From: Candidatus Latescibacterota bacterium
GTDB taxonomy: Bacteria > Latescibacterota > UBA2968 > UBA8231
DNA length: 64,000 nt
Direction: 5' to 3'
Assembly (NCBI GenBank): GCA_965217585.1
Contig: OZ244561.1
Span: 2,176,001-2,240,000, forward strand
Below the pieces are notes generated by a model. The model ran no database searches. It was not told the DNA's origin and saw only the letters and a program-made list of their open reading frames with translations. Positions 38,628-64,000 of this stretch are shown here, one piece after another. Numbering within the stretch: the first letter of the stretch is position 1; each line of letters begins with the position of its first letter. The position numbers and the translations under genes are program-made.

Positions 38628-40685
38628 TTAATAGGCCGCACCTGAGCGCTGTAGTTGATCTGCCCGGGCACGAGCTAGGCGGGCCTGTTCCGTTTGCCCC
38701 ATTTTCTCGTAGAGGACACCTAAATTGCGATGGGCTGTGATCGATTGGGCATCGTATTTGATGACCTGGAGTAGGGACCTTTCCGCTGCCTCGTAGGAGC
38801 CCTGCTGCATATAGAGTACGCCCAAGTTCCGATGGGCAGGGACAAAGTCGGGCTCGATCCGGATGGCTTGTTCGAGGGCGTGGATTTGTTCATCTGCCAG
38901 ATCCAGATTGGAAAAGGCGTGGGAGAGACCGTAATAGGTCTGGGCACTCTCTCTGCTGTGCAGCGCCCGTTCAAAGGCCTGGCGAGATTGTTGAAAGTCT
39001 TTTTGGAACAAGAAGACATAGCCCAGGTTGTGGTACGCCGGGTGGGCATTGGCTGGCCGGGGATCGTGTTTTAGGCTTTGCTCCAAGGCGTGCCGCGCTT
39101 GCTCCAAACGTCGTTGACTCAGGTAGAGTTTGCCCAAATTGAGCCAGGGTTTGGCGTGATCTGGGACTAGCTCTACTGCTCGCAAGAAGGCCGCTTCGGC
39201 TTCGTCAAATTTGCCCAGGTACTGGTAGGCCACGCCCAAGCTGTTGTAGAGGTCGGAGTCGTCGGGAAATTGCTCTAGCCCGTGCGTATAGGTCTGTACG
39301 GCTTGGTGGTAGTGCTGGTTGCGCAATTGAGTATGGCCCAACAGCCAAGGGGAGCGCAAATGGTCCACTTGCCGGGCATCCACCCCCGTATGCACTAGGG
39401 CGAAGGCAGCTACCAGAAGCAGCAGAAAAACGCCCAGGCGTGGAGCGGCTCGGGCGTCCAGCAGTTCTTTCAGACGCCAGATTCCAGCAGCGGCGAAGAC
39501 CAGTAAAAAGGGCAGGGCGGGCAAGCGGTAGCGAGCGCATACCGAGAATAAGAGCCCGGTGGATAGGTAGGCTACAACGAAGAGGAGCGGCAGGATATAG
39601 GCGGAGGTCCAGCGCCAATGCCACAATATGCCGACTAGGGCAAAGGGCACCACTAGGCCAAAGTTGAGCAAAAAAAGTCGGTAGTGTGGAAAGTGGGTCT
39701 CGTAGTAGCGCAGGTCCGCACTTACTGGGATTTCAAAAGCGTTCCAGAAGAGCCGAAATTTGCGATAGAGCAGATGGAGATAGGCCAGAGGATCGCGGTA
39801 AATAAATCGCAGGCCTTCGGCGGTGTAAAAGGCCCCTTTTGCCGCTGGCGTGTCAAATCCTTGTTGGAGAGGCATGAGTTCGAGACGTTGAAAATGGGCT
39901 CCTTGGCGCACGTAAGGGGTGCCGTCGGCTTCGGGGTTGGTGCCCAAATAGAAGCTGAAGCCGCCTTGGAAGGGTATGGGCGTCTCTTGGACCAGATAGT
40001 TGCGCAGGAAAAAGGGAAAAAGAATGAGGAAGAAGGTCAGGGAAAAGGTTAGCACCAAGGTACCCCGGTGCTTGGGAAGGCCACCGGCGCTCTGGTAGAT
40101 CCACCCCAAGAGCAAGGGCAACAGCAGCAGGGTGTTGCTGCGTCCCATGACTAGCAAGCCCAGCAGAATTCCGGCACCGCCTGCGCTACGGTAGGTCAGA
40201 TTGGGCGCATAGTGCAGGAGCAGGACCGCCAAGCCCAATTCGACGAGAATGACCAATGTAGTAGCCAAGAGTTGGCCGTTGTAAAAGACGAAGGGCCAGT
40301 ACCCGGCCGCCAGCAGACCGGCGATCAAGGGGATGGGATGGGGAAAAAGGTAGCTGGCTACGCGGTAGAGCAGGACGCAGATAAGCGCGCCCAGCACGGC
40401 CTGGAACAGGAGAATGCCCAAATGGTCGAAGCCGATTCCTTTGAGCAGGGCGAGTAGGTACGGGTAGAGGGGACCATGCACGTACATGTCCACTGCCGGG
40501 TCGAGGAGCCAGTTTCCCTGCAGGATTTGGGTGGCCAAGTGATCGTATTCAAAGGCGTCTATGACAAGAGTGTGGAAATAGGGGGCGTCGCGTATGGCAG
40601 CTAGGTAGGATAGACGCAATACCAAAGCCAGCAAGAAAATGGCTAGAACCTGAAATCTGGTGGAATGAATGATAATTTGGAGCAT
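38628..40685 (-). CDS. GT-C (ArnT/PMT-like) membrane glycosyltransferase with C-terminal TPRs
   Basis: 'GPLYPYLLA', about 12 TMs, 'FYLGTNP', 'ARYRLPALP', multiple TPRs. Confidence 0.85.
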   Translation of the reverse strand: MLQIIIHSTRFQVLAIFLLALVLRLSYLAAIRDAPYFHTLVIDAFEYDHLATQILQGNWLLDPAVDMYVHGPLYPYLLALLKGIGFDHLGILLFQAVLGALICVLLYRVASYLFPHPIPLIAGLLAAGYWPFVFYNGQLLATTLVILVELGLAVLLLHYAPNLTYRSAGGAGILLGLLVMGRSNTLLLLPLLLGWIYQSAGGLPKHRGTLVLTFSLTFFLILFPFFLRNYLVQETPIPFQGGFSFYLGTNPEADGTPYVRQGAHFQRLELMPLQQGFDTPAAKGAFYTAEGLRFIYRDPLAYLHLLYRKFRLFWNAFEIPVSADLRYYETHFPHYRLFLLNFGLVVPFALVGILWHWRWTSAYILPLLFVVAYLSTGLLFSVCARYRLPALPFLLVFAAAGIWRLKELLDARAAPRLGVFLLLLVAAFALVHTGVDARQVDHLRSPWLLGHTQLRNQHYHQAVQTYTHGLEQFPDDSDLYNSLGVAYQYLGKFDEAEAAFLRAVELVPDHAKPWLNLGKLYLSQRRLEQARHALEQSLKHDPRPANAHPAYHNLGYVFLFQKDFQQSRQAFERALHSRESAQTYYGLSHAFSNLDLADEQIHALEQAIRIEPDFVPAHRNLGVLYMQQGSYEAAERSLLQVIKYDAQSITAHRNLGVLYEKMGQTEQARLARARADQLQRSGAAY

Positions 40686-40743
40686 TACGCCAAGGGTGAA
40701 TCAATCTGGACAGTAGATAGCGGGGGTGAGTTGACATATAAAA

Positions 40744-40786
40744 AAGCTCCTGTTTCCCACCCGTAAATGGCGCGAAACAGGAGCTT
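40744..40786 (-). terminator. Rho-independent terminator
   Basis: 13-bp stem AAGCTCCTGTTTC/GAAACAGGAGCTT followed by a T-run on the minus strand. Confidence 0.7.
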
Positions 40787-40839
40787 AGTAAAACCCGGGC
40801 AGCCTGCCCAGGAGACTTGCAACGGCTAAACCGAGACCC

Positions 40840-41745
40840 TTAGCGGTCGAAACCGGCCTTGATATGCCCCCAGCTGGTCTCTGCAATAGCAGTAACAGCA
40901 GCAGACAGGTCTTCTACTGCGGGCTCGACAGGTGCCATTACGAAGTCGTTAACGCCCTTACAGCAACTCTCTGGCGACAAAGACCAGAAGCCATTGTAGG
41001 CGTGGTTTGCCTGTTCGACGTCGATATCACCCATGGTTACCGACATATGGATGATTTCTTCCTCTTCCAGGTCGTGGATAGACGAGTTGTCCGGGGTAGC
41101 ACCTTCTCGGGGAAGGGCATCGATCGGAATGAGGCGAATCTCGTAAAAGTAAGTCGATTCACCGAATTGTTCACCGGTGAAAGACCAGCTCATGTCGACG
41201 AATTCGGTATCATCCGACAACCAAGCTAGATCGCCGATGGGCTCAATCGACTGATAAACCCCATCCGACGGGGGTACGACCCACTTGTAGCTGATGTTAT
41301 TGACGGGATTCCCTTCGAGGTTCTGCTCTTCACTGGCAGAATGATCTGGGTTGATTTCTATTTCCCAGTTGTCATCGAGACAGTGACAATCCCCAAAGGC
41401 ACGGTCGATGTTGTGGATATTGTCGAAAATTTGGCTGGCAAGGTAAATCATATTGGAATTTTCATTCCAGCCAAACCGGTGCCGGACATTGGCATCGGAG
41501 ATATCGATTTCACCACGGGCCGCCTGCTGGAACTGGGCGGGGTCAAAAAGTCGATCGTTAAAGATCGAATAAGGCGATTCGGGCAGGATGTCCCAATCGC
41601 TGTGTTCCCCGTCTATGGTGGGAACTAGGTTATCGGGAAATTGTGCAGCAAAAAATATCTCGCCTGGTGGCAAATGTGCACTTGCCATCGAAACGGTCCC
41701 AAAGACGAGAAAGACGCTGCATAATATAGCTATCTTTCTTTTCAT
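40840..41745 (-). CDS. Secreted acidic protein (DOMON/CBM9-like) with C-terminal SWGxIK motif
   Basis: Signal peptide (ASA), 'PTIDG..SDW', CxC and CC motifs, ends TAIAETSWGHIKAGFDR. Confidence 0.65.
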   Translation of the reverse strand: MKRKIAILCSVFLVFGTVSMASAHLPPGEIFFAAQFPDNLVPTIDGEHSDWDILPESPYSIFNDRLFDPAQFQQAARGEIDISDANVRHRFGWNENSNMIYLASQIFDNIHNIDRAFGDCHCLDDNWEIEINPDHSASEEQNLEGNPVNNISYKWVVPPSDGVYQSIEPIGDLAWLSDDTEFVDMSWSFTGEQFGESTYFYEIRLIPIDALPREGATPDNSSIHDLEEEEIIHMSVTMGDIDVEQANHAYNGFWSLSPESCCKGVNDFVMAPVEPAVEDLSAAVTAIAETSWGHIKAGFDR

Positions 41746-41959
41746 CTTCTCTCGAACCTTTCAGTTAGAGGTAGAACAATTCTTGATGAGACAGGGGAAT
41801 AGAAATCAACCCCTATCAAACTCCATTCAAGCCCGATCCTTGTCCTACATTCTCCTCCTTTCTACTTCAAAGGACCACTGGAAAAGTGCCATAATTAAAT
41901 ACTAAAGGGATAAAGTTGTCAAGATAATTGTGCAGTTCATAAGGTTGCGAAGATTAACT

Positions 41960-42110: not shown

Positions 42111-44276
42111 TCAATAGGCGACGGCAAAGACACCCTGTTGGGTGTGTTGCTCCTCGGAATCGAGGGTCAATTCGTAGATATAGGTGCCGGGTTGGACCAA
42201 GGCGTCCTGCCTATTGCGGCCGTTCCACTGCTGGACAAAGACACCGCTGCGGGCCTTGAACACCGGTAGATGCGCCACCAGTCGGCCCGCTAAGTCGTAG
42301 ATGCGCACCTGCACCGGCCGGTCGGCGGTGACCTCGCGCAGCTTGTAGGTGATGGTCAAGGTCTCGTTGATCCCGTCGCCGTTGGGCGTGAACATCTGGG
42401 GCACAGCCACATCCACCAGCAGATCACCCCCCACTGGCGTGTTGACCGCCAGCAAGTCGCCAGCAAAGCGGAACGTGGCGTTGCCCGGATCGATGCGCTG
42501 CCGGATCTGATCGGGATCCGTGCTGCTGAACACCCAACCGCTGAACTCGGTGCCAAAGCGCAGCACCGGCACGTCGAAGTCGACCTCGACCTGCTTGAAG
42601 CTGTCGGCGCTGCCGGTCAGCGGCGGGAAGGACACGATGAGGCGATCATCGAGCAGATGCGGGACGAACTGGTCTAAGTCCACTGGCTGCCCATCAAGGC
42701 GCACCGAACGCACCGCGTGCGCTTGGACATGGGTGAGGATTTCCAAGCGGTCAAAGCCGGCATTGTCGTCTATGAGGGTGGGCAGAACCACATAGGTAAA
42801 GGGCGTCGGTTCAAAGGAGGCGACCTCGATAGGCCAGATCTCACCGACGAGGGCCTGCGCCGACAGGGTCTCGCTCAACTGCAGGGTGAGTTGATCGAGG
42901 CGGGGTGCCACATGGAAGTCGGCAAAGAACTTGATGGCGATTTGGATGTAGCGGCTGGGGCCGGGCGACAGCAGCAGGATGCCGTCCTGCCAAGTGCTGG
43001 CTGGCTGGTTGGGGTTGCGCTGGCCAGCGGCAAAGTCATAGGGCGGCGACCAGAAGCTCCAGTGGGCGGCATCGTAGGTGGGGAGCAGTTGAGCGGCTCG
43101 GTCGATTTTGTCGTATTGGGCACGGGTGATGGATACGAGGTCGTCGTTGATATTGGGTGCGAAGTAGAGTTGCGGATCGGGGGTGTGGCCGGTGCGGGTG
43201 CGGATTTCGATGCGGGTGCCGGCGGGCATCTCACCTTCCCAGCGGATTTTGCCCCAGGTGACGGCTTGGCCGAAGTCGAGGATGGGGGTGAGGTAGGTGG
43301 TCTCGGAAACGTAGCCGTCGCCGTAGATTTCGAATTCGGCGATTTCATAGTCGCGCAGGGGGAAGGTGCGCAGCGTGAGCCAGCGGGTGGAGCGAGAGGG
43401 AAAGCGCAGGTCGACGACGGGGTTGAGGTTTTCGCGGGTAGATTCCAGCACCGTCAGCAGTGGATCGCCGTTGCGCACCCACCGCAAGTCGCCCAAGACG
43501 GTGCGCCGTTTGCTCGTCGCCACACCGCTGGACCCCCCCGCTCTACACTCGCTGCAAGTGAGACTACCACTACCGCTGCAGGGGTCCGGGGCAAAGACGA
43601 CCGAGTTATCACCGGTGCGGATCTCATACCAAGCGAGGAAATTGTCGAGGAAGCTGTCTTCGCCAAAGCTCTCCACCTCCGGCGTGGGCACGTCCATAGT
43701 CTGGATCAACTGGTGATCCTCCCTTTGGCTCAGGCGGGGATAGAAGCGGATGCGGTTGATCGGCACACCAGCACCAAAATCGAAGACCACGGAATTGGTC
43801 CAGGTATAGCCCACGCCCGGCGGCGAGCCGACCCGTTGGACAAAGGTGCGGAAGGTGGCCGTGGTCGGATCGCCATCCAGCATTAGCTTGATCGAAGGTT
43901 GAAAATTGCCCCAAAAAATACAGTGATCCGTGCTGAGAACCCTGGAGCCGGGGATATAGGGCAGAGGAATGGTAGTCTTCCCGGCATTGACATTGGCCCG
44001 AGCGATATTGACGCTCGGGTCAATGAGCCGGGGTTGGATCGAGGTGCCGGAAAAGTCGATCAAGGTATCGGCCCCCACGCCAAAGGGCGAAACCTCCACC
44101 GATACTTGGCGCTCAACTTGGCCGTCGGCAGCAAAGGCCTGATAGGTGCTTTCTCCGGCCAGGATGGCCTGCCAGGGGTTGCCATCGGTCCCACCTAGGC
44201 GGTATTCCGTCCCCCCCAACACGGGCACAGCACCGAGCAAGACGCTGCAAAAACAGAGCAACACGATGCCTGCCAT
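42111..44276 (-). CDS. Secreted discoidin-like/beta-sandwich protein with FlgD-Ig C-terminal domain (duplicate copy B)
   Basis: Signal peptide; 'LDGDPTT', 'INRIRFYPR', 'IAEFEIYG'; 'FTPNGDGIN...IYDLAGR..W.G......PG.Y.Y'; ends VAY. Confidence 0.8.
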   Translation of the reverse strand: MAGIVLLCFCSVLLGAVPVLGGTEYRLGGTDGNPWQAILAGESTYQAFAADGQVERQVSVEVSPFGVGADTLIDFSGTSIQPRLIDPSVNIARANVNAGKTTIPLPYIPGSRVLSTDHCIFWGNFQPSIKLMLDGDPTTATFRTFVQRVGSPPGVGYTWTNSVVFDFGAGVPINRIRFYPRLSQREDHQLIQTMDVPTPEVESFGEDSFLDNFLAWYEIRTGDNSVVFAPDPCSGSGSLTCSECRAGGSSGVATSKRRTVLGDLRWVRNGDPLLTVLESTRENLNPVVDLRFPSRSTRWLTLRTFPLRDYEIAEFEIYGDGYVSETTYLTPILDFGQAVTWGKIRWEGEMPAGTRIEIRTRTGHTPDPQLYFAPNINDDLVSITRAQYDKIDRAAQLLPTYDAAHWSFWSPPYDFAAGQRNPNQPASTWQDGILLLSPGPSRYIQIAIKFFADFHVAPRLDQLTLQLSETLSAQALVGEIWPIEVASFEPTPFTYVVLPTLIDDNAGFDRLEILTHVQAHAVRSVRLDGQPVDLDQFVPHLLDDRLIVSFPPLTGSADSFKQVEVDFDVPVLRFGTEFSGWVFSSTDPDQIRQRIDPGNATFRFAGDLLAVNTPVGGDLLVDVAVPQMFTPNGDGINETLTITYKLREVTADRPVQVRIYDLAGRLVAHLPVFKARSGVFVQQWNGRNRQDALVQPGTYIYELTLDSEEQHTQQGVFAVAY

Positions 44277-44388: not shown

Positions 44389-46554
44389 TCAATAGGCGAC
44401 GGCAAAGACGCCTTGTTGGGTGTGTTGCTCCTCGGAATCGAGAGTCAATTCGTAGATATAGGTGCCGGGCTGAACCAAGGCGTCCTGCCCGTCGTGGCCA
44501 TTCCACTGCTGGATAAAGACACCGCTGCGGGCCTTGAACACCGGTAGATGCGCCACCAGTCGGCCCGCCAAGTCGTAGATGCGCACCTGCACCGGCCGGT
44601 CGGCGGTGACCTCGCGCAGCTTGTAGGTGATGGTCAGGATATCGTTGATCCCGTCGCCGTTGGGCGTGAACATCTGGGGCACAGCCACATCCACCAGCAG
44701 ATCACCCCCCACCGGCGTGTTGACCGCCAGCAAGTTGCCAGCAAAGCGGAACGTGGCGTTGCCCGGATCGATGCGCTGCCGGATCTGATCGGGATCCGTG
44801 CTGCTGAACACCCAACCGCTGAACTCGGTGCCGAAACGCAGCACCGGCACGTCGAAGTCGACCTCGACCTGCTTGAAGCTGTCGGCGCTGCCGGTCAGCG
44901 GCGGGAAGGACACGATGAGGCGATCATCGAGCAGATGCGGGACGAACTGGTCTAAGTCCACTGGCTGCCCATCAAGGCGCACCGAACGCACCGCGTGCGC
45001 CCGGACATGGGTGAGGATTTCCAAGCGGTCAAAGCCAGCATTGTCGTCGCTGAGGGTGGGCAGGACCACATAGGTAAAGGGCGTCGGTTCAAAGGAGGCG
45101 ACCTCGATAGGCCAGATCTCACCGACGAGGGCTTGAGCCGACAGGGTCTCGCTCAATTGCAGGGTGAGTTGATCGAGGCGGGGTGCCGCATGGAAGTCGG
45201 CAAAGAGCTTGATGGCGATTTGGATGTAGCGGCTGGGGCCGGGCGACAGCAGTAGGATGCCGTCCTGCCAGGCGCGGGCGGGCTGGTTGGGGTTGCGCTG
45301 GCCGGCGGCAAACTCGTAGGGCGACGACCAGAAGCTCCAGTGGTCGGCATCATAGACGGGCAGCAGTTGGGCGGATCTGTCGATCTTGTCGTATTGGGTG
45401 CGGGTGATGGGTACGAGTTCGTCGTTGATATTGGGGGCGAAGTAGAGCTGGGGATCGGGGGTGTGGCCGGTGCGGGTGCGAATCTCGATGCGGGTGCCGT
45501 CGAGCACCTCTCCTTCCCAGCGGATTTTGCCCCAGGTGACGGCTTGGCCGAAGTCGAGGATGGGGGAGAGGTAGGTCGTCTCGTGGACATAGCCGTCGCC
45601 GTAGATTTCGAATTCGGCGATTTCATAGTCGCGCAGGGGGAAGGTGCGCAGCGTGAGCCAGCGGGTGGAGCGGGTGGGAAAGCGCAGGTCGACGACGGGA
45701 TCGAGGTTTTCGCGAGTGGATTCCAGCACCGTCAGCAGTGGATCGCCATTGCGCACCCATCGCAAGTCGCCCAAGACGGTGCGCCGTTTGCTCGTCGCTA
45801 CATCGCTGGAAATCCCCGCTCTACACACGCTGCAGGTGAGACTACCACTACCGCTGCAGGGGTCCGGGGCAAAGACGACCGAATTGTCGCCGGTGCGGAT
45901 CTCATACCAAGCGAGGAAGTTGGCCAAGAAGCTGTCTTCGCCAAAGCTCTCCACCTCCGGCATGGGCACGTCCATAGTCTGGATCAACTGGTGATCCTCC
46001 CTTTGGCTCAGGCGGGGATAGAAGCGGATGCGGTTGATCGGCACACCAGCACCAAAATCGAAGACCACGGAATTGGTCCAGGTATAGCCCACGCCCGGCG
46101 GCGAGCCGACCCGTTGGACAAAGGTGCGGAAGGCGGCTGTAGTCGGATCACCGTCCAGCATTAGCTTGATCGAAGGTTGAAAATTGCCCCAAGCAATACA
46201 GTGATCCGTGCTGAGGACTCTGGAGCCGGGGATATAGGGCAAGGGAATGCTGGTCCTGCCGGCATTGACATCGGCCCGGGCGATATTGACGCTGGGGTCA
46301 ATGAGCCGAGGTTGGATCGAGGTGCCGGAAAAGTCGATCAGGGTATCAGCCCCCGCGCCAAAGGGCGAGAGCCCTACCGATACTTGGCGCTCGACTTGGC
46401 CGTCGGCAGCAAAAGCCTGGTAGACGCTTTCCCCGGCTAGGATGGCCTGCCAGGGATTGCCATCGGTCCCACCTAAGCGGTATTCCGTCCCCCCCAACAC
46501 GGGCGCAGCACCGAGCAAGACGCCGCAAAAACAGAGCAATATTATGCCTGCCAT
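44389..46554 (-). CDS. Same family, tandem duplicate copy A
   Basis: 721 aa, about 45 substitutions versus 42111-44276 by manual count (~94% identical); period 2278 bp. Confidence 0.8.
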   Translation of the reverse strand: MAGIILLCFCGVLLGAAPVLGGTEYRLGGTDGNPWQAILAGESVYQAFAADGQVERQVSVGLSPFGAGADTLIDFSGTSIQPRLIDPSVNIARADVNAGRTSIPLPYIPGSRVLSTDHCIAWGNFQPSIKLMLDGDPTTAAFRTFVQRVGSPPGVGYTWTNSVVFDFGAGVPINRIRFYPRLSQREDHQLIQTMDVPMPEVESFGEDSFLANFLAWYEIRTGDNSVVFAPDPCSGSGSLTCSVCRAGISSDVATSKRRTVLGDLRWVRNGDPLLTVLESTRENLDPVVDLRFPTRSTRWLTLRTFPLRDYEIAEFEIYGDGYVHETTYLSPILDFGQAVTWGKIRWEGEVLDGTRIEIRTRTGHTPDPQLYFAPNINDELVPITRTQYDKIDRSAQLLPVYDADHWSFWSSPYEFAAGQRNPNQPARAWQDGILLLSPGPSRYIQIAIKLFADFHAAPRLDQLTLQLSETLSAQALVGEIWPIEVASFEPTPFTYVVLPTLSDDNAGFDRLEILTHVRAHAVRSVRLDGQPVDLDQFVPHLLDDRLIVSFPPLTGSADSFKQVEVDFDVPVLRFGTEFSGWVFSSTDPDQIRQRIDPGNATFRFAGNLLAVNTPVGGDLLVDVAVPQMFTPNGDGINDILTITYKLREVTADRPVQVRIYDLAGRLVAHLPVFKARSGVFIQQWNGHDGQDALVQPGTYIYELTLDSEEQHTQQGVFAVAY

Positions 46555-53970: not shown

Positions 53971-56900
53971 CTAGTAGACGACGGAAAGCAGACGGGTTTG
54001 GGTGGACTCGCCTTCTTGGTTGTCTACATCCAGTTCTAGCTGGCAGAGGTAGAGCCCGGGTGCCACTTTTTGGCCGTTGCCGTCTTCGCCAGACCAGCGA
54101 ATTGAAACGTGGCCGCTGTCGAGCATCTGCGTCGTCTCCCATACCGAGCGGCCATCCAAAGTGAAAATCTTCACCTTCACTTGGCGGCTGGCAGTTACTT
54201 TGAAGATGGAGAAGCGAATCACCACCTCGTCGTTGATGCCATCCCCATTAGGGGTGAAGGGATTGGGGTCTAGACTAAATTTATCGATGGGCTTACTCTC
54301 TAACGGCACATTGATAGAAAGGGAATTGCTCCCCACCAAAGGGGTCGCATCGCCGGCAGCGATGCTCTGCCATGGAGCATCAGCGCCACTGCTGGTATTG
54401 CGTACAGCTAGGCGCAGAGTAGTGCCATTGAGAAAGACCGGTGCCCTATAGCGCATCCGTACCAGCGGACCTCGGCCGACTATGTTGCCTTTTATCCTGC
54501 TGGAGAGGCGGTTGTAGGCGGCAACATCGAGGGAATCGCCCACCTCGTCGAAGGGGAACTGAGCCCCCGCCCCGTTCAGCAGCCTAAAGAAGCGCACGGA
54601 GCCTTGCTCCTCCTCTTCGAGGGCAAGGTAGGAGGCCTGATCGATGGAGTTGCCCTCTGCATCGAAATAGAGAATATCTCCCTTTTCCTCGTCTTCGAGC
54701 AGCCCGTAAGAATCCCCCGAAAGCAGCAAGCCGTCCCCTGTTACCGGGACTTGATCCCCTTCTGTGGTGATTTTGTTATAGATTTTGGGCAAATCGGAGA
54801 GGCTATGGAGTGGGGTGGGTAGTTGCACCCAGATGGAATCGGAGCCAGTGGTAGGACCCAAGAACCGGAGCAACCCACCGTTTTCGTCGACGAAACTTCC
54901 CTCTTCAATGGGAAGGAAAACTTGGTCTTCCCCATCGGTCTGGGGATCGGTGTCTAGGCCCACCTCAAGGAGTTCCATGCTTTGGGAGGCGGGCATGGTC
55001 AGCAGGATTTCATCGAACCCAGTACTGCGCGCTGCAGAAGGACTTTCGATAAAATTGGGTTGGATAAATACTTCAAAGGTATCGACGATGCCCGGAGTGG
55101 GAATATCAATGGGCCACATTTCGGCCAAAACGAGTTCGGCCACAGGGGTGGCCATCTCAATGCCGATGGATTGTATGGCGGCGGCGGCATTTTGGTCGGT
55201 CGTGATCATTTTGACTTGGATCTGCATGAACTTCCGCAGCCCAGGGGAGGTCACTGGATCTCCCGGGTTCTGGTAGGCCCGGCTCCAGGGACTCCAACCT
55301 CTCGTCGGGATAAAGGTGGTATCCGCCGGACCTTTGAAACTGCCGATGAGATTCTTCCAAACGTCGGCGGTAATTTTCGTACCACCTTTGTCGAAATAGC
55401 GGATTTCCTTGGCCAGCAGATCGCCAGTGCGGGTGCGCACCTCCAGTGTGGTCCCTGGCGGAGTCTCTGCTTCCCAAGTGATACCGCCAAAATTCCGCGT
55501 CCCCGGCAGTTCGATCAGATCCGAGACCAACTCTACTGCAGCCGGATAGCCATTTGAGAAGAGTTGGTATTCGGAAACATTCGGACCAGCGGCATAACCG
55601 CCCCGGCGGTTGGGGTCATCGGAGACGATGGTTATTTCCAAGAAGCGCACTTTGGGAGGGGGCTGGTACACGTCCATTATGTGCTCGAACAGATCTGCTA
55701 GGTTGTGTTCTCGAGCCCGGGCACTTATGCGTCGCCATTTGATCCGGCCGCTAGAATCCCGCGACCCGTCCGAGCCGCGCAGAATATAGCCATCGATGTT
55801 AAGCCGAGGCAGGGAGGAGGACATGCGAAAGGTGTCCAACCAGAAAGTAGCCCCCATATCCACGAACAGAACCCCCCGGTCCACCGTCGGAGACCAGACT
55901 AGGTGGATAAAATTGGTGCCTCCATCCCCGTCAAATGCCGGGGCCGGAGAAAAGGAATCGTTGGCCCCATGGAAAGCGGCCGAGCCGCCCCCTGCTACGA
56001 GCGCCGGGCTGAGATTGTCCCCAAATCCCCAGACTTGGATGTCGGCTAGCCGGGGCCGCTCGCGGATGTAGTGCTCTATTTTGCCTTGGCGTTCGGGCGA
56101 CAGACCGTCGTAGACAGATTTTTCAACAGGTTCTTCGAATCCCCGCTGGTTCTTAATAAAATGGACAACATCTCCCCGATCTGCCCGGTTCAGAGCAGAC
56201 CATTCCTCCTCTGAAATCAATTTGCGCCGGCCGAATTTGGAATCGGTTACTACAATGCGGATTATCTGGACGGTTTCCCCAGTCCAGTTGGGATCGGCCT
56301 TGAATTGGTCTAGCTGGAAAGAGAACACCCGCTGGTCCTCGTTGGAGCTTTTGGTGCCGCCTTCGCGGCGAAAGGGAATTTTTCTCACCTCTTGGTTGAT
56401 AATCTTTTGGAAAGGGGCGCTCAATATTCTGAACTGGCGGAAGGGATCGCCCAACGACTCATCGACAAAATTTAAGACCAACTCGTCGACGGGCAGGCTC
56501 CGGCCGAGGTCCACCTCGACCCACCAGTCCTCTATGGGGTCGTTGAAGTCGGGTTCCCAGAAGGTGCTGGGGTCGCCGTCCAGAATGTTGGCCGCCGCCC
56601 TGGGATTGGATCCGACGCGACTGATACCTATGCGGGATAGGTAGGTGTAGAGGGGATTTTTCTTGCGGTCGCGTATGATATTGCCGAAGACATCCAGCGT
56701 TTCGGTGCTGTCGATATTCAAGACGGCGGTCTGATTTTTCTTGCGCCTAAAATCCAACAAGCGGCGAGTATAGGTTCCCAAGTCGTCTAGGACATTGAAT
56801 CGGGAGCGGGAAAAGTGGGGCTGGACGCCGCCGGAGGGGAGTATGTCCACGGCATGTCCGGGCATACTCCAACGCTCCCAGTGGGCTGGGGAGTTGACAA

Positions 56901-57030
56901 TGATCTGGTTGCCGACGATCCGGTATCCCCGCTTCTGAGCTTCAGTAGGCTGGGGTGGGACGAGGTTCAGACCGAGCAAAGAGATGAGAATCAGGGCAGG
57001 GTAGTGTGAGCGGTAACTCGGGTGTCTCAT
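53971..57030 (-). CDS. Large secreted protein with two discoidin-like domains and FlgD-Ig C-terminal domain
   Basis: RBS GGAGG before ATG 57030; 'LDGDPSTFW...WWVEVDLG', 'VRTRTG', 'SPGLRKFMQ', 'PNPFTPNGDG'; ends VVY. Confidence 0.8.
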   Translation of the reverse strand: MRHPSYRSHYPALILISLLGLNLVPPQPTEAQKRGYRIVGNQIIVNSPAHWERWSMPGHAVDILPSGGVQPHFSRSRFNVLDDLGTYTRRLLDFRRKKNQTAVLNIDSTETLDVFGNIIRDRKKNPLYTYLSRIGISRVGSNPRAAANILDGDPSTFWEPDFNDPIEDWWVEVDLGRSLPVDELVLNFVDESLGDPFRQFRILSAPFQKIINQEVRKIPFRREGGTKSSNEDQRVFSFQLDQFKADPNWTGETVQIIRIVVTDSKFGRRKLISEEEWSALNRADRGDVVHFIKNQRGFEEPVEKSVYDGLSPERQGKIEHYIRERPRLADIQVWGFGDNLSPALVAGGGSAAFHGANDSFSPAPAFDGDGGTNFIHLVWSPTVDRGVLFVDMGATFWLDTFRMSSSLPRLNIDGYILRGSDGSRDSSGRIKWRRISARAREHNLADLFEHIMDVYQPPPKVRFLEITIVSDDPNRRGGYAAGPNVSEYQLFSNGYPAAVELVSDLIELPGTRNFGGITWEAETPPGTTLEVRTRTGDLLAKEIRYFDKGGTKITADVWKNLIGSFKGPADTTFIPTRGWSPWSRAYQNPGDPVTSPGLRKFMQIQVKMITTDQNAAAAIQSIGIEMATPVAELVLAEMWPIDIPTPGIVDTFEVFIQPNFIESPSAARSTGFDEILLTMPASQSMELLEVGLDTDPQTDGEDQVFLPIEEGSFVDENGGLLRFLGPTTGSDSIWVQLPTPLHSLSDLPKIYNKITTEGDQVPVTGDGLLLSGDSYGLLEDEEKGDILYFDAEGNSIDQASYLALEEEEQGSVRFFRLLNGAGAQFPFDEVGDSLDVAAYNRLSSRIKGNIVGRGPLVRMRYRAPVFLNGTTLRLAVRNTSSGADAPWQSIAAGDATPLVGSNSLSINVPLESKPIDKFSLDPNPFTPNGDGINDEVVIRFSIFKVTASRQVKVKIFTLDGRSVWETTQMLDSGHVSIRWSGEDGNGQKVAPGLYLCQLELDVDNQEGESTQTRLLSVVY

Positions 57031-57368
57031 ATGGGCCTCCTGTGCGCATATCGACCGCATCAACCGCGCAGGACCTGCAGCATTGTGTTTTAGCACTACG
57101 ATGTCAGAGCGAACGAGCCCGGCTATCCCACAGGTAAAGGCGCTGGAGATAGTTGCACCAAAGCGGGATCTGGGTACGGAAGTTACTCAGGTATTGCAAG
57201 TCCGTTTGGCATTGTAGTAGGTACCGACATGCTGTCAGAGCCGAGAATGTACGAGATATATTAATAAATATATGTTATTGTAAACAAATTTTTTTAGAAT
57301 CGGCGGGTGCTGGAAGGCGTGATCTCCGCCGCCAGCTTGAAGACATGAAGCTAGCCGGGTGCCTCGAT

Positions 57369-59018
57369 TTAGTTTTGGGCCAGCAATAGGGAGTCGGGTA
57401 CCGCTTCCTTGAGGCGATCGGGGTAGATTTTGATCTGGTCGGCGTATTTCTCCCTCAGTTGCACCAGAAAGGCATTTAGCGCTTGGGTCTCCCGCTCTAG
57501 ACGGACCAGTGCCCAGGCCTGTCGCTGAGCAGTCTCAAAAGGTTCGATGCTGCTTTCTTCCCGTTCTAGGACGCGGAATACAGAGTAGCCTCCCTCTACT
57601 TGCAAAGGACCTTCAAGTAGGCCCTGTTGGGCTTGGAAAACAGCGGGTACAAGCACGGGATAGCGGACTTTTCCCAGCATGTGGAAATGATATCGCCCAT
57701 TGTATTTTTGTGCGTCTGCCCTCAAACTCTTATCGACGAATTGATCAAAGGGTGCACCTGCTTCTATTTGGGCTTTGACCTGCAGGGCGTCTGCCTGAGT
57801 GGGGAGCAGCACTTCCTCAACCCATATGGCCTCGCTGTGGCGGAAGGTCTCCAAATGGGTGTCGTAATAGTGGCGCACGTCTTCTTCGGAGAGGTCAACT
57901 AGGTCGGCTATGACGCTCTTTCTCACGGTTTCAAGAAGTTTGTCACTCGCGGTGCGCTCGACAAACTTCTGAATCTCGGGCGTTTGGTAAAAACCGCCTT
58001 TCCGGGCTGCTTCCTGGACCAGATGGACCTCCAAAAAATACCGATTCAGGGTGCCCACAGCTTGGGCGCTGTCGGCAAGGCCAAAACTGATGTTCCTCTG
58101 ACGCAAGAATTCCTGGACCTGACCCAGGGTTACTTCGCCGCCTCTATAGGTATATAAAGCCGTTGAATTTCCCTCTATGCGCGTGGGTTGCTTTGCCTTA
58201 TAGGCGTTGACCAACTTGCGCAGACCGGACGGGTTTAGGCGCACGTTGAAGGAATCGCGCAGTTGCTCCAAGTGCTCGGCCTCTACCTGGGCAAGGCGCT
58301 TTTGGTAGAGTAGACTGGCAATCCTCGCTTGGTATTTCTCATAAGAGGCAGGGCGGTCTTCACTAAAGCGCAGAATATGCCAAGCAGAACCGGCGGGCAG
58401 GGGCTCTGAGAGTTGATCTTGAGGCAGGGTCTTGAAGACCTCCGGTGGGATGTGAAGCAACTCGAGCTGGTCCCGGCCGATAAAGCCCAACTCGCCACCC
58501 CGTTCGGCCGAGCGCTTGTCCAGAGAGCGAGCCTGGGCGACTTCCTCGAAGGAGCGGCCTGCCCTCAGTTCCTGAAGAACGGTGTCGATGGCAGCTCGGC
58601 TCGCTGCTTTGATGGCGTTGAGCAGGCGCTCTCGGCCGTAGCCTTCCTTTTCGAAATAGCGCTGTACTGCCTCATTTGATATTTTGACTTTAGAAGTTAT
58701 CTCCTGTGCTTTATATACTGACCTGACCCGAGAATTGACGGCGTCTTGGACTGAATTTTGAAAGGTGTTAGTGGTAGCGAATCCTCGGGAACGGGCCTCT
58801 ATCAGCAAAAGTCGGCGGTCTATCAGGGCTTGGAGATAGTAGCGGAGGGCCTCATCGCCTGTCTTTTGGGTCCGTAGTCCGTCGGGCAGTTCCTCCACGT
58901 AGAGGCGCAACAGGCGTGCATTGATCTGGTGCGGGCCAACTTCCGCCACGAGAGGTTCTTGAGGAGGGCTTTTGCAGCTAAGCGAAAGAACTAAGCAGGC
59001 CAGTAGGAGGTGTTTCAT
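57369..59018 (-). CDS. SurA/PrsA-like parvulin PPIase lipoprotein (two rotamase domains)
   Basis: Lipobox LSLSC; 'FEEVAQARS.D..SAERGGELG', second 'FD....S....G.Y' domain. Confidence 0.85.
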   Translation of the reverse strand: MKHLLLACLVLSLSCKSPPQEPLVAEVGPHQINARLLRLYVEELPDGLRTQKTGDEALRYYLQALIDRRLLLIEARSRGFATTNTFQNSVQDAVNSRVRSVYKAQEITSKVKISNEAVQRYFEKEGYGRERLLNAIKAASRAAIDTVLQELRAGRSFEEVAQARSLDKRSAERGGELGFIGRDQLELLHIPPEVFKTLPQDQLSEPLPAGSAWHILRFSEDRPASYEKYQARIASLLYQKRLAQVEAEHLEQLRDSFNVRLNPSGLRKLVNAYKAKQPTRIEGNSTALYTYRGGEVTLGQVQEFLRQRNISFGLADSAQAVGTLNRYFLEVHLVQEAARKGGFYQTPEIQKFVERTASDKLLETVRKSVIADLVDLSEEDVRHYYDTHLETFRHSEAIWVEEVLLPTQADALQVKAQIEAGAPFDQFVDKSLRADAQKYNGRYHFHMLGKVRYPVLVPAVFQAQQGLLEGPLQVEGGYSVFRVLEREESSIEPFETAQRQAWALVRLERETQALNAFLVQLREKYADQIKIYPDRLKEAVPDSLLLAQN

Positions 59019-59119: not shown

Positions 59120-60016
59120 ATGGTCAAGGTGATGAACTTCCGTGTGAAGGCGAGCAGAGGTGTTTTTGGGGGACCCCTGATCGCTCTGCTGTTAAGCGTC
59201 CAAGGGACGATGGGGCAAGTGCCCGAGGTGGGTGATCTAGCGCCGGATTTCACTTTGCAGCAGCTAGAGGGCGACTATGTGTCTCTGAACGACTTCCGCG
59301 GCAAGGTGGTCCTTATCAACTTCTTCGGTTTCATCTGAAGTCACTGTCTCGCGGAGGCCGCGAAGATAGAGCAGATTTGGCAGGATTTTAAAGGGGAGGA
59401 ATTCGTCTTGATTGGCGTGGATGTAGCGGACGGCATCAGCCAACAGGTGGACTTGAGTTTTCGCCAGAGAACAGGAACGACCTACCCTCTTCTTCTCCAG
59501 GCCAGTACAGTAGGATCCCTCTATGGTTTTACCCAGCATAACTATGCGGTGATCGACCACGAGGGGATTTTGCGCTATCGTTCGGTGGGCGCTGTTGCCC
59601 GCCGGTTCAACGAACAGGTTATCCGCCAGCACATCGAGCAGGCGCTAGATAACTTGGGCGCGACGCTTGTGGCTGGAGATAAGGAACGGGAACTGCTAGC
59701 GGAGACCGCAGGGCTGGAGATGTCGGATGGGCAACCAAGGAATTTTGAGTTAGAGAAGAATTACCCCAATCCCTTTAATAGCGGCACGGTCATCCCTTTT
59801 AGCTTGTCCAGTGAAACAGAAGTGCATTTGCAGGTTTTCGATGTACTGGGACGGCCTGTGGTCAATCTGGTGGTTGGGCTGTTGCAGACCGGTCGTTATA
59901 GGGTAAATTGGGAAGGCCGGGACGCCGGAGGGCAGCCGGTACCCTCCGGCATCTACCTTTACCGTTTGAGTAGCGGGAAGAGAACAAAGAGCCGCAAGAT
60001 GACGCTCGTGCGGTAA
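59120..60016 (+). CDS. Predicted selenoprotein: AhpC/TlpA-like redoxin (U-S-H-C) fused to a FlgD/secretion CTD
   Basis: ORFs 59120-59338 and 59408-60016 share a frame and are separated only by TGA 59336-38: 'GKVVLINFFGFI-U-SHCLAEA'; tail 'NYPNPFN...W.G.D..G..V.SG.Y.YRL...RKMTLVR'. Confidence 0.85.
59344..59369 (+). promoter_or_regulatory. Bacterial SECIS-like hairpin
   Basis: CTGTC-TCGCGG-agg-CCGCGA-a-GATAG starting 6 nt after the UGA, G-containing apical loop. Confidence 0.65.
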
Positions 60017-60045: not shown

Positions 60046-62856
60046 TCACGGTGAGGTGCGCGATTTCTCCCTTCGCTGTAAGGCCGCTTGTACTTGGGCG
60101 AGGTTGCGTTTGGCATCGGCGAAGTCAGTTTTGAGTTGGAGTGCTTTTTCGAGATAGAACTGAGCTTCTTTTAGCTTTCCTCGCCGGGCTAGCGCTCCTC
60201 CGAGATTGCTACAGGTTTCCGCCCGATCGGGCTGTAGCCGTAGCGCAGCCTTGTAGTGGTGGATCGCTTCGTCGAGGCGCCCCAATTGGTGGAATGCCAG
60301 AGCCAAGCCGTCCAAGGCCTGTACATCCTGGGGGGCGATTTCTACGACTTGGGTGTAATGGGCCCTCGCTTCTTCAAAGCGGTTCAAGCGCATTAGTACA
60401 TCCGCTAGAGTGCGCCTAGCCACTAGGTGCTCGGGGAGTTGGTGCAGGGCGACTGCCAATAGTCTCGAGGCGTCCAGATAGTTTCGGACGGCGATTAGGA
60501 TTTTGGCTTGCCGGAGGGCGGCGCTAGCGGCAATTTCCCGCAGGTTTTTGGTCCGTATTTCCTCAATGGTCCTCTTTTCATCTGGCCCAATAGGCATCAA
60601 GGTGGCGAAGGGTTCCAAATGCTTTTGCAAAAGATCGAGCGTCGGGAGCGCGTTTGTCCGATTTACAAAGGCTCGAGCGACCGCATAGTCGAGAACGGGC
60701 CGATCGTCTCTGTAGACCGGGGCCTCATTCGCCAGTTTGGCTAGACCACCAGATCCCATCAGATAACTGCCCAAAAAGACCTGTGGTCGATTGAGCCAGT
60801 AGAGGGGGCCTCCCCAGTGGCTGTACTCCAGATCGCGGCGAATTTTTTCGTTGGACAGACGTCCTTCGAGAACGGCCCGATCAATGGCGAAATCCCGTCC
60901 GCCGCCAATGAGCAGCAGTTCTGAAGTATTGTACCACAACAGACTGTGGGGAAAAGCCTCGAGAAAGCTTTGCACAGTGCTGCGGAAATGGTCGGCGGTC
61001 AAGAGAGACAAGGGGACAAATTGGACCAGAAAACCGCCAGCACGCAGCCGTTTTTGCACTTGGTTGTAGAAGTCGACCGTGTAGAAAGACGCCACGCCGG
61101 GACGAGAAAGTTGGCCCAATTCAAGGGAAATCACATCGTATGTCGAAGGGGTATGGCGCAAATAGTTGCGGCCGTCAGCGCCGATCAACTCGACTCTGGG
61201 ATCTTCCATCCAACTGGCGTCGAAATGGGGGCGGATAAAATCGAAGATGGTGGGTTCGATATCGACGCACTCTAAGTGGTCAATAGAGTAAAGCAGAAAG
61301 CGAGCCGCGGTCTGGCCGGTGCCGACGCCCACCAAGAGGACCCGCTTGGGATCGGGATGCAACAACATAGGGACGTGGGCCGCCATTACTTGGTGTGTCT
61401 TGCGGTCCCTACCCTGCCACCAGCGGTTGATCTCGAGTTGAAGTCCTTGATCTTGGCGGATGACCGCCAAGTTGGAGCCGTAGCCTTCGCGGAAGTCGAC
61501 AAGCTCTTCCCGCTCGCCCAGAAAGTCGGCGGGAATACGGGTGGCCATCAGGGAGGGAACTGCGAGCCATAGGCACAAGGAGAGCCCTATGAATGCCGCT
61601 TTAACGGCTAAGGTAGATGTGCGGTCGAGCCAGGTCCACGCAGCGAACCCAACAGCCAAGCTCGTGCCCGTGAGGAAGAGGAGACTGCTCTCCAGGCCGA
61701 AGAATGGCAGGCCCACAAAGCCGATCGCCAACGACCCTGCGATTCCCCCCAATGTGTTGACTGCGGCGATTTTCCCCGTGCCACCGCTCGCCGCGGATGC
61801 GTCCTCGACCACCATTCTCACCGCCAGCGGAAAAGACGCACCTCCTAAAACAGCAGGAGGCAGCAGTAAAACTGCATAAATCCACCACTCCTCCCCCAGA
61901 CGCCGCCAGATGTCAGATGGGAGCATCATTAGGAGGAGTACTACCAGCCCCAAAAACACTTGGATAACGCCGAAATACCGTGCTCTATGTATTGTCCCAT
62001 CAAAGAACAGGGAGGCGAGCACGCTCCCCAACACTAAACCCACTAGCACTACGGCCAAGGTCAGCGTATAAGTGTACACTGTATTGGCGATCAAAAGTCC
62101 CAAATAGCGCGTCCACAGCACCTCGCCTCCCAGCGCTACAAAGCCAACGGCAAAAAACAGCGCAAATACACCCCAATGACCTCTCTCTTCCGTCTCTAGA
62201 AGCCGGAGTCGAGCCAGTCCGCTTCTGGCGATTGGCAGAGACCCTGCGACGATGCCCACGAGCATGTTCAAAACTGCCCCGAGTCGTACTGTGCCCAGAA
62301 AGCCTAGCTCCGGCAAAAGGATGAATCCGGCGCAGACACAACCTAGGGCTGCGCCCAAGGTGTTGATGCCGTAGAGTAAGCCGACGGAACGGGCAATTTT
62401 GGCATCACTGCGCACAAACTGACGACAGAAGAGGGGGAGGGTGGCGCCCATGAGAACCGTCGGCGGCAAGACCACGAATCCCACTAGGACAATCCGAGTC
62501 AGGAAGTGCAAAATGGCGTGCCCAGCCAGGGATTGGTAGACGGTGCCGTAGAGGGAGTCTACCAATTCGAAGGCATATGGACTGGCTAGCACCAAAAGCC
62601 CTAGGCCGATTTCAACCAGAGCAAAAACGAGCAGAGGACGACCGGTCCGCTGACCGTAGCGCCCGAAGAGGTACGAACCGCAGGCTAGGCCTAAGAAGAA
62701 AACCGCTAGGACCGTGCTGAGGGCAAAGGTAGTGGAGCCGAATAGCAATGAAGCTTGGCGGATCCAGACCACCTCGTACACTAGGCCCGCAAATCCAGAG
62801 AGGAAAAAGCAGATGAGCGCAATCAGAAGCTGCACACTACGAGCGCCTGTAGCCAT
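60046..62856 (-). CDS. Fused membrane (MFS-like)/spermidine synthase-like protein with C-terminal TPRs
   Basis: 'SGFAGLVYEVVW', 'LYGINTLGA', 'VLLVGVGTGQT', 'DIE', 'DGRNYL', TPRs. Confidence 0.85.
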   Translation of the reverse strand: MATGARSVQLLIALICFFLSGFAGLVYEVVWIRQASLLFGSTTFALSTVLAVFFLGLACGSYLFGRYGQRTGRPLLVFALVEIGLGLLVLASPYAFELVDSLYGTVYQSLAGHAILHFLTRIVLVGFVVLPPTVLMGATLPLFCRQFVRSDAKIARSVGLLYGINTLGAALGCVCAGFILLPELGFLGTVRLGAVLNMLVGIVAGSLPIARSGLARLRLLETEERGHWGVFALFFAVGFVALGGEVLWTRYLGLLIANTVYTYTLTLAVVLVGLVLGSVLASLFFDGTIHRARYFGVIQVFLGLVVLLLMMLPSDIWRRLGEEWWIYAVLLLPPAVLGGASFPLAVRMVVEDASAASGGTGKIAAVNTLGGIAGSLAIGFVGLPFFGLESSLLFLTGTSLAVGFAAWTWLDRTSTLAVKAAFIGLSLCLWLAVPSLMATRIPADFLGEREELVDFREGYGSNLAVIRQDQGLQLEINRWWQGRDRKTHQVMAAHVPMLLHPDPKRVLLVGVGTGQTAARFLLYSIDHLECVDIEPTIFDFIRPHFDASWMEDPRVELIGADGRNYLRHTPSTYDVISLELGQLSRPGVASFYTVDFYNQVQKRLRAGGFLVQFVPLSLLTADHFRSTVQSFLEAFPHSLLWYNTSELLLIGGGRDFAIDRAVLEGRLSNEKIRRDLEYSHWGGPLYWLNRPQVFLGSYLMGSGGLAKLANEAPVYRDDRPVLDYAVARAFVNRTNALPTLDLLQKHLEPFATLMPIGPDEKRTIEEIRTKNLREIAASAALRQAKILIAVRNYLDASRLLAVALHQLPEHLVARRTLADVLMRLNRFEEARAHYTQVVEIAPQDVQALDGLALAFHQLGRLDEAIHHYKAALRLQPDRAETCSNLGGALARRGKLKEAQFYLEKALQLKTDFADAKRNLAQVQAALQRREKSRTSP

Positions 62857-62956
62857 AGTAGGTGAATTGCTGCTTTCCAGATCGGGGATTATATTGCCGT
62901 AACCCTATGTATGGTAAAAAGAAAAAAGGGACCGCGACAACTGGATTGAGTCCGCG

Positions 62957-64000
62957 ATGTCTATTCACCGCTGCTGCAGCGCCTTTTGGGTTGTCCTACT
63001 CCTGTATGCCTGCAGCACTGATACCCATACCCCTCTTGAAAAGGCACACCCACCAGCACAGGATCCCGAAGGTGTGCGGTTGACCAACCGAGGGGCTTTC
63101 TTTTTAAAACAGAGCCAGCCGCGCAACGCTCTGACCGTTCTGCGTCAAGCCGCAAAACGGGTACCCAAACTCCCCTCAGTCCACTTTAACTGGGGGCTAG
63201 CCCACGTTCGTCTAGGTGAGTACGGGCTGGCTATCCCCCTCCTTCAACGGGCTGTGGGACTCGATTCGCTCAATGGTTCTTTTCGCTTTGTCTTAGGGAA
63301 TGCTCTTAGCGCCGAACACCGCTACCCCGAGTCGATACTCCATTATCAGCGCGCCATTGAGTTGGAACCAGAAAAGGCGCTCTATCGCTATCAACTCGGT
63401 AAATCTCTGAGAGCTACGGCAGATTTCGACGGGGCCATTGCCGCCTTTGAAGCAGCACTGGATTTGGAGCCTGATTTTGTAGATGCCCTCTACCACCGCA
63501 GCGAATTGCTCGGGCGCAACGATAGACCCGCCGAAGCCGAGGCTGGATACAAAAAACTGTTGGTGCTGGCACCTCAGCATGTAGCCGCTCTCGTCGCCTT
63601 GGCCACCTTGCAAACCCAAGTGGGGAGGCATCGAGAAGCCATGTCTGCCCTAGAACAAGCCATCGCCCGGCAACCGCGTCACGCCCAGGCCCACTATTTG
63701 CATCACCAAGTCCTCAACCGGATGAAGAGAGCCGACGAAGCGGCCAGAGCGCTGCAAATCTACCAGCGCTTAAGCATGGCCAAGCGCCACTATGACCAGG
63801 GACAAATCTACCTGCTCAAAGGTAAACAGGAGCAGGCAATCACCTCTTTCTCCGAGGCTATAGAGATCGATTCTTCTTTTGTTGATGCGTACCTCAGCTT
63901 GTGTATTGTGCATTTACAAGTAAATGACCCGCAAAGTGCTCGCCACCTCTTGGAGCGGATTCTCGGCTTAGCGCCCGAACATGTGGAAGCCCATTCGCTA
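62957..64000 (+). CDS. TPR-repeat lipoprotein, 3' partial (absent from the ORF track)
   Basis: MSIHRCCSAFWVVLLLYAC lipobox; successive TPRs ('YQRAIELEP', 'FEAALDLEPDFVDA'); frame open to window end. Confidence 0.8.
   Translation, partial: MSIHRCCSAFWVVLLLYACSTDTHTPLEKAHPPAQDPEGVRLTNRGAFFLKQSQPRNALTVLRQAAKRVPKLPSVHFNWGLAHVRLGEYGLAIPLLQRAVGLDSLNGSFRFVLGNALSAEHRYPESILHYQRAIELEPEKALYRYQLGKSLRATADFDGAIAAFEAALDLEPDFVDALYHRSELLGRNDRPAEAEAGYKKLLVLAPQHVAALVALATLQTQVGRHREAMSALEQAIARQPRHAQAHYLHHQVLNRMKRADEAARALQIYQRLSMAKRHYDQGQIYLLKGKQEQAITSFSEAIEIDSSFVDAYLSLCIVHLQVNDPQSARHLLERILGLAPEHVEAHSL

Follow-up and report, generated by a model that had tools for sequence, protein, structure and literature searches.

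Amplified cassettes pairing a new family of predicted outer-membrane barrels with type IX secretion-tailed proteins in Candidatus Latescibacterota

The 64,000-nucleotide stretch of Candidatus Latescibacterota DNA analysed here (the window; G000:2176001-2240000, G000 being the source genome, 7.32 Mb in a single contig and 94.6% complete) carries one copy of a gene cassette, which represents a genuine envelope system and has apparently not been described before. Its genes are designated by letters: B, an 895-amino-acid (aa) protein predicted to form a large outer-membrane beta-barrel; V, secreted proteins ending in V-x-Y (VxY proteins); P, a peptidyl-prolyl isomerase (PPIase); h, a CBM9-like protein; G, a glycosyltransferase C-like protein with tetratricopeptide repeats (GT-C+TPR); and S, a spermidine-synthase-like fusion. 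We tentatively favour, at slightly less than an even chance, the reading that lectin-like V proteins exported through type IX secretion (the T9SS) feed B, which would act as an energised uptake channel. An earlier note, made from the window sequence, had taken the same genes for a dedicated pathway of export, folding and glycosylation of VxY proteins; the core linkage of B, V and PPIase stands, and the proposed signal, exporter, redox part and glycosylation target are unsupported. What is new is the combination of barrel, lectin and motor; the signal for export only varies one already known. Neither the cassette nor DUF6785, a family recurrent among its neighbours, was described in what literature searches returned, subscription journals and supplements being outside their scope.

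The cassette is strongly amplified. Searching all six-frame open reading frames (ORFs) of G000 with phmmer recovered 79 B, 168 V, 45 P, 37 h, 16 GT-C and 9 S genes. They form 59 clusters, about 50 of which contain B, and the window is one such copy; B and V together span 598 kb, or 8.2% of the genome. The clustering perceived in the earlier note is real: when genes ≤10 kb from B were compared with 200 random placements, V was this close in 137 of 168 cases, far beyond the random mean of 31 and maximum of 47. The corresponding counts are 33/45 for P (8.5 expected), 33/37 for h (6.4 expected), 10/16 for G (3.0 expected) and 5/9 for S (1.7 expected, random maximum 5). Directly upstream of the 79 B genes lies a V gene in 48 cases and another B in 18.

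Co-occurrence extends across the phylum, and named homologs and loci of the cassette come mostly from Candidatus Latescibacterota. One set of 151 genomes was searched for B, the V body, SprA_N and DUF6785, which were detected in 94, 76, 143 and 137 genomes, respectively. Every V-positive genome carries B (76/76), and 74 of the 76 carry SprA, the two without it being 75% and 78% complete. The 18 genomes with B but without a V match should not be regarded as V-free, since the search with a single V protein did not pick up the divergent VxY proteins of G060, G006 and G015, which were seen later in fetched stretches. Copy numbers of B and V correlate across genomes (rho 0.88, from rough candidate counts among kin that are not independent). 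Among the 75 best B loci from GTDB, which are close kin of the window subfamily and not independent of each other, V is present in 74, G in 59, P in 52, h in 32, DUF6785 in 16, a CRTAC1-like family in 15 and S in 7. Barrel, VxY protein and PPIase thus form a conserved unit. The GT-C genes are syntenic in the window subfamily, G000 has 16 of them for 79 barrels, and the spermidine-synthase-like fusion, once proposed as a component, is sometimes near B but only an occasional neighbour. Clustering at 50% leaves the barrel family as a whole with 740 representatives (E up to 0.001), many of which are fragments. Of 18 hand-picked 20-kb stretches around top matches in five distant genomes, 16 hold a barrel; a VxY gene is found in three of these and none in the other 13, where the neighbours of the barrels include h, DUF4159, DUF6785 and catabolic genes such as UxuA, AXE1, NagB and sugar-acid dehydratases; many of the 13 are set among catabolic genes.

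The tails of the V proteins place them among T9SS cargo. The four window proteins do have the V-x-Y termini described earlier, and in all of them the motifs RTRTG, SPG, [GA]E[IM][WF]P and F(S/T)PNGDG are arranged identically along the protein, which confirms a common architecture. CHU_C (PF13585), the T9SS type B signal, matches all four tails above cut-off (E 2e-13 to 5e-7), and TIGR04131 falls just below its cut-off in V1 and V2 (32 bits against 35). The tails had been assigned to FlgD-Ig, but FlgD_ig stays below cut-off in all four and CHU_C scores better; a flagellar FlgD role was rejected on the same scores. Rather than a signal of its own, the family has a variant of the C-terminal domain (CTD) of type B. 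The genome encodes a single SprA translocon (SprA_N E 2e-22, 2145-aa ORF) and two PF19572 PorV matches, one of them adjoined by a C25/PorU gene. The core-gene check was positive for these components. GldM and GldN, to which the search of the Gld proteins was confined, were not found in the 94.6% complete genome, with controls silent, and on this account the local T9SS may not be canonical. PF11751 (PorP) also gave nothing in G000, its control being silent, and weak PorV/PorP-like proteins, small ones of 286-311 aa, appeared below cut-offs in the NCBIfam search (TIGR03519 E about 1e-12). In Flavobacterium, a type B cargo gene commonly has a cognate sprF-like shuttle gene after it, and several orphan cargo proteins can make use of a single shuttle (PMC12618676). 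The gene directly after the window cargo is B, which has no PorP match; PorV/PorP-like genes follow a VxY gene only in a conserved motor locus described below. In a second tail class of G000, some 100 ORFs combine varied bodies with a tail resembling type A.

The V bodies are predicted to be lectin-like. V1 and V2 are 94% identical, other V pairs share 28-30% identity, and 160 of the 170 V-body matches in G000 end in Y. Signal peptides can be read from the sequences. The AlphaFold model of V3 is all-beta (pLDDT 90.8). Its residues 70-240 match CBM32/F5-8 modules (Z 13-14, root-mean-square deviation (rmsd) 2.3-2.9), the match to 4a42 having Z 14.2 and rmsd 2.3 over 124 aligned residues, and residues 571-678 match the PorU CTD 6za2 (Z 12.0, rmsd 2.7, 99 aligned). 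Together with an F5/8 type C match in V4, the model bears out the discoidin-like domain suggested earlier. Sugar binding by V does not follow from a predicted CBM32 fold alone. Across the genome the bodies are strongly diverged (median normalised pair score 0.07), and we take this divergence, together with the carbohydrate-binding module (CBM) fold, as expected of a ligand-binding repertoire. The second putative binder, h, resembles CBM9 weakly: CBM9_1 matches 4 of 21 members (best E 9.5e-4), and the search against the Protein Data Bank (PDB) gave nothing significant, the match to a xylanase entry being weak (E 0.026). The short tail TAVExxSWGxIKxxF is found on h and on about 70 other G000 ORFs of varied bodies, and h has no Pfam or NCBIfam match there; judged by its sequence, this WGxIK tail may be a third sorting signal. 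The pattern has 81 matches in G000, some of them in spurious frames. In four of four RNA-library runs the contig depth over the h region (window 40600-41900) was far above that of neighbouring genes, which is a lead only, as contig depth cannot rank genes.

The suggestion that B is a barrel is supported by prediction. AlphaFold predicts the mature protein as a beta-barrel (pLDDT 88, pTM 0.85) with 23 long strands by DSSP, 22-24 being possible depending on the N-terminal region. As read from the DSSP string, short turns lie on one side of the model and two large inserts on the opposite, long-loop side: a predicted beta-sandwich (residues 220-385) and an Asp/Asn-rich segment (residues 469-593), the latter being the most conserved region of B, with 32 of 97 columns at ≥90%. 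Covariation among 401 B sequences (Meff 227) supports contacts between neighbouring strands but not the closing pair. No match was found in Pfam, NCBIfam or PDB sequences. Foldseek and VIA-align retrieved only generic barrels (MtrB, SlpA, LptD, FimD and CymA; TM ≤0.33 by query, Z ≤14, high rmsd), and structural matches to TonB-dependent transporters (TBDTs) were equally generic; fold searches of this kind, which yield no specific relative, exclude no family. The nearest named Atlas cluster, DUF6029 at 0.88, is a lead only.

A divergent class of barrels links the cassette to a motor. We distinguish window-type barrels (B1) from the 25 of 79 G000 barrels that are distant from window B (B2). At 232-253 kb of G000 the gene order is VxY-CTD protein, PorV/PorP-like protein, B, a 1090-aa TPR protein, ExbB, ExbD, ExbD, lipoprotein and PPIase, and the series V, PorV/PorP-like, one to three B, giant TPR, ExbB and ExbD recurs in G000, G006 and G015, which represent three families. 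Giant TPR, ExbB and DUF4159 genes cluster with B2 and not with B1, whereas GT-C and h cluster with B1 only; 8 of 10 giant TPR genes of G000 lie ≤5 kb from a B2 barrel, and 4 of 8 ExbB genes ≤10 kb. Motor-linked loci include a lipoprotein fused to an AgmX/PglI (TonB_C-like) domain (62 bits, cut-off 40). Two further motor/TPR loci, G000:471973-488672 and 1298998-1306955, hold V, h, lipoprotein and DUF4159 genes with no adjacent B, and a gene for a TonB-dependent receptor marks the end of the second. Of 73 DUF6785 genes in G000, 34 are near B, compared with 6.7% of the other genes. Proteins of the DUF6785+DUF6784 inner-membrane family number about 73-79 in G000 (e.g. at loci L044, L045 and L055) and are amplified across most of the phylum.

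The coordinates of the cassette genes and their neighbours are collected in Table 1. On the minus strand of the window the order is P, V4, B, G2, V3, V2, V1, h and G1, and upstream of this series the window carries the selenoredoxin, the spermidine-synthase-like fusion and the TPR lipoprotein. All ORFs listed in the earlier note are present at the positions it gave.

Table 1. Cassette genes, their neighbours in the window, and the motor-linked form of the cassette (window coordinates unless a genome position is given).
Feature	Position	Strand	Status	Basis
B, predicted 895-aa outer-membrane beta-barrel, new family	51132..53819	-	core	AlphaFold; 79 paralogs
V4, 1041-aa secreted protein, all-beta, F5/8 type C and type B-like CTD, ends SVVY	53971..57096	-	core; directly upstream of B	
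V3, 705 aa, predicted CBM32-fold domain, Ig-like stalk, type B-like CTD, ends GVAY	46645..48762	-	core	AlphaFold
V2, 721 aa, ends AVAY	44389..46554	-	recent tandem duplicate of V1	94% identity to V1
V1, 721 aa, ends AVAY	42111..44276	-		sequence motifs, CHU_C
h, 301-aa secreted CBM9-like protein, short TAVExxSWGxIK tail	40840..41745	-	core; absent from the earlier list	
P, parvulin-type PPIase lipoprotein	57369..59018	-	core	Rotamase domains, lipobox
G2, GT-C (PMT_2-like)+TPR membrane protein	48840..51131	-	accessory in a subset of loci; directly downstream of B	PMT_2
G1, second GT-C+TPR protein, 32% identical to G2	38628..40685	-	accessory	PMT_2
AhpC/TSA-type selenoredoxin, UxxC, type A CTD	59132..60016	+	neighbour, outside the cassette	TGA at 59336
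Fused membrane/spermidine-synthase-like and TPR protein	60046..62856	-	occasional neighbour	NF037959 above cut-off
TPR lipoprotein, open at the window end	62957..64000	+	loosely associated	
Motor-linked cassette form	L042 (G000:231500-251499), L177, L180-L181			

Under the favoured reading, V proteins, combining a CBM32 fold with a type B tail, would probably be exported by the single SprA translocon, with the small PorV/PorP-like barrel perhaps serving as shuttle. Once exported, V would likely sit at B, which would import the bound ligand; V and h may bind B at its extracellular Asp-rich insert, which is conserved. The ExbB-ExbD-ExbD/TPR motor encoded at B2 loci and shared in trans would supply the energy, and DUF6785 might then move the ligand through the inner membrane. 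Folding or assembling the all-beta components would be the task of the PPIase, and the GT-C proteins would be optional modifiers. In SusC/SusD and Ton systems, the parts of which serve here for comparison, we see both likenesses and differences. As with SusC/SusD, there are many paralogous loci in which a large barrel is accompanied by surface proteins with predicted carbohydrate-binding folds and by inner-membrane transporter-like neighbours, and as in Ton systems, ExbB/ExbD and a TonB_C-like domain are found in some cassette loci. Unlike in SusC/SusD, B has neither a TBDT match nor an assigned plug, the binders are T9SS-tailed proteins and not SusD lipoproteins, and no glycoside hydrolase recurs. 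It is conceivable, although we hold it somewhat short of even, that Latescibacterota have used unrelated parts to build their own equivalent of the SusCD utilisome: giant channels, an ExbB-ExbD-ExbD/TPR motor and lectin-like feeders delivered by a Gld-less T9SS.

Several observations weigh against an uptake role. The N-terminal residues 1-67 of B have low pLDDT and no ordered plug can be assigned there; B matches neither PF00593 nor PF07715 (TonB-dependent receptor), and the 20 PF00593 matches of G000, corresponding to about 20 ordinary TBDTs, all lie elsewhere than B. No ExbB gene is found ≤20 kb from any window-type (B1) barrel in G000. DUF6785 is not encoded in the window, it is present and amplified in the 51 genomes of families f2-f4, in which neither B nor V was found, and it was not found in family f10, which has B; being separable from B, it was rejected as an obligate partner, and its OPT-like reading is a weak lead (0.77-0.79). 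No glycoside hydrolases occur among the recurrent neighbour families, and catabolic families near B are at or modestly above background (PhyH 21/115, Gfo 9/80, enolase-type 5/74). The PorP-like genes number three or four for 168 cargo proteins that would need them. Finally, a strong rival exists, in which B anchors and displays its cargo.

According to this rival, which we regard as a serious possibility but distinctly on the less probable side, B is a non-homologous stand-in for PorP/SprF, that is, the cognate anchor and display platform of a variable adhesive coat, suited for instance to living in a sponge, and plays no part in import. The position of V upstream of B, either directly or before a second B, matches the order of type B cargo and sprF-like genes (PMC12618676), and PorP-like proteins may also anchor their cargo (PMC9143113). 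The empty PF11751 search, with its silent control, points in the same direction, although weak PorP-like genes do exist and one directly follows a VxY gene. Divergence of B is mirrored in the CTD of its upstream V (Mantel 0.31, reached in 0 of 2000 shuffles), but not clearly better than in other V genes of the same locus: the values for upstream and same-locus V are 0.17 and 0.17 over 41 loci, and 0.37 and 0.19 over 36 loci (the interval for this difference being -0.05 to 0.42). Moreover, many barrels occur without V, and a motor-linked barrel of 22-24 strands would exceed what an anchor needs.

That the window encodes a self-contained export pathway, with B translocating the VxY proteins, the PPIase and selenoredoxin folding them and TMTC-like GT-C enzymes glycosylating them, is improbable. 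The series P, V, B, G is conserved in the window subfamily, B has the size of protein-exporting barrels, and the usher FimD ties for first place among its generic matches (Z 13.9, rmsd 8.8, 331 aligned). However, such FimD-type matches are generic (rmsd 8-9), B has no match to usher families, and no pilus chaperone is present in the window. The failure to find GldM and GldN, controls silent, would also suit an independent exporter, but the CHU_C tail with its predicted PorU-CTD fold and the SprA of nearly all V-positive genomes argue for export by T9SS. Because the barrel occurs without V, as in 13 of the 16 distant barrel stretches, V was not seen without the barrel, and in the conserved motor locus a small PorP-like barrel stands where a shuttle would be expected, we take B for a channel or receptor rather than an exporter.

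The remaining parts of that proposal fared unevenly. The SurA-like PPIase is borne out by its Rotamase domains and lipobox. The two GT-C+TPR genes are likewise genuine, and the enrichment of GT-C near B is real, but most loci lack them. Both match PMT_2, the match of G1 (PF13231) reaching 27.2 bits against a cut-off of 26.1, as do 14 of 19 aligned members; the proteins have 8-9 hydrophobic segments, and a search against PDB sequences gave nothing significant. The TMTC domain DUF1736 (PF08409) had no match in the GT-C proteins or in G000, where the genome control was silent; on these matches they look PMT_2-like rather than TMTC-like. They resemble TMTC1-4 and bacterial PMT_2/ArnT-type GT-C enzymes in having a multi-pass GT-C-like part followed by TPRs, and differ from TMTC1-4 in the PMT_2 match and in the lack of DUF1736 and of a PDB sequence relative. 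The motif D[ST][AILVMT], which we take to be the O-glycosylation motif of the Fibrobacterota-Chlorobiota-Bacteroidota (FCB) group, is at 1.11x expectation in all V proteins, 0.97x in the 42 V near GT-C and 1.16x in the other 126; with few GT-C genes, no DUF1736 match (control silent) and no motif excess in V near GT-C, dedicated glycosylation is not supported. On these sequence counts V is not indicated as the GT-C acceptor, although another acceptor motif is possible. In the cassette PPIases (family of window 57369-59018) the same motif stands at 2.68x, and B and type A cargo are depleted in it (about 0.45x).

The selenoredoxin with a CTD is real: the in-frame TGA falls in UxxC, is kept in four of four orthologous loci and in a paralog, and the genome has tRNA-Sec. 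A role as dedicated redox catalyst is not supported, since it is found in only 4 of the 75 loci, all of them orthologs, carries a type A CTD, and has its sole close paralog 97 kb from any B; thioredoxin-fold matches ≤10 kb from B amount to 2 of 17. Selenoredoxin and spermidine-synthase fusion were rejected as core parts. The paralog, likewise an AhpC/TSA-type selenoprotein with UxxC, lies at G000:4566166-4566534 and precedes an ORF with a type A T9SS tail; judging from their sequences, the two would be secreted selenoproteins.

As improbable as the self-contained export pathway is a force machine akin to Agl-Glt, in which the motor loci would move or pull V adhesins and the motorless copies would supply exchangeable adhesin-barrel heads. 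The proposed parts are ExbB, two ExbD, a giant TPR protein, an AgmX-domain protein and two or three barrels, following an Agl-Glt part list that we presume. Triple-barrel operons with a giant TPR and matches to AgmX/PglI and the GltG C-terminal domain in the fused lipoprotein are consistent with it, but the Glt matches cover the TonB_C-like domain only and lie far below full-length cut-offs, and single barrels amid catabolic genes fit a transporter better. Loci combining TPR, tolQ-like and two tolR-like genes with unusual force transducers have been described and suggested to relate to gliding (PMC12204202). The motor-linked cassettes resemble those loci in having a giant TPR gene followed by ExbB and two different ExbD genes, and differ in their neighbours, namely DUF4159, AgmX-domain proteins, large barrels and T9SS cargo; the main text of PMC12204202 mentions neither Latescibacterota nor DUF4159.

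Other features of the region are peripheral to the cassette. Beyond the window end the TPR lipoprotein is followed by another TPR protein, which has FG-GAP/ASPIC-like repeats; of the 56 CRTAC1-like family genes in G000, 24 are near B. Window 28889-33889 encodes tandem paralogous TlpA-like thioredoxin proteins, with CxxC read from sequence, followed by a carboxypeptidase-regulatory and DUF5686 outer-membrane protein. The fragment at 34171-34752 appears truncated and presumably resembles the C-terminal part of a TRAP-type solute-binding protein. RNA runs containing the window stretch include sponge metatranscriptomes. Most of the locus is covered by RNA-library contigs that come from four sponge-associated studies, and a single contig spans G2-B-V4; as depth of contigs does not allow genes to be ranked, they were not used as evidence.

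Set against known T9SS type B systems with PorP/SprF partners (SprB-SprF and PG1035-PorP-PorE; PMC12618676 and PMC9143113), the cassette shares the CHU_C tail with FTPNGDG, cargo directly upstream of a barrel gene, the presence of SprA, PorV and PorU, and, in the conserved motor locus, a PorV/PorP-like gene directly after the VxY gene. It differs in its phylum, Latescibacterota, in the V-x-Y tail, in its 168 cargo proteins compared with 12 in F. johnsoniae, in the usual downstream partner, which is the unrelated 895-aa barrel, and in the GldM and GldN that were not found (controls silent). The analysis defines a family of large predicted outer-membrane barrels without Pfam, NCBIfam or PDB relatives. 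Barrel and cargo are probably the main surface investment of a common uncultured lineage that occurs in sponge samples. The T9SS core of SprA, PorV and PorU is present outside Bacteroidota, apparently without GldM and GldN, alongside proteins whose tails are type B-like (about 170), type A-like (about 100) or short (about 70). This makes two questions testable: what powers a translocon of this kind, and by what means type B cargo is sorted.

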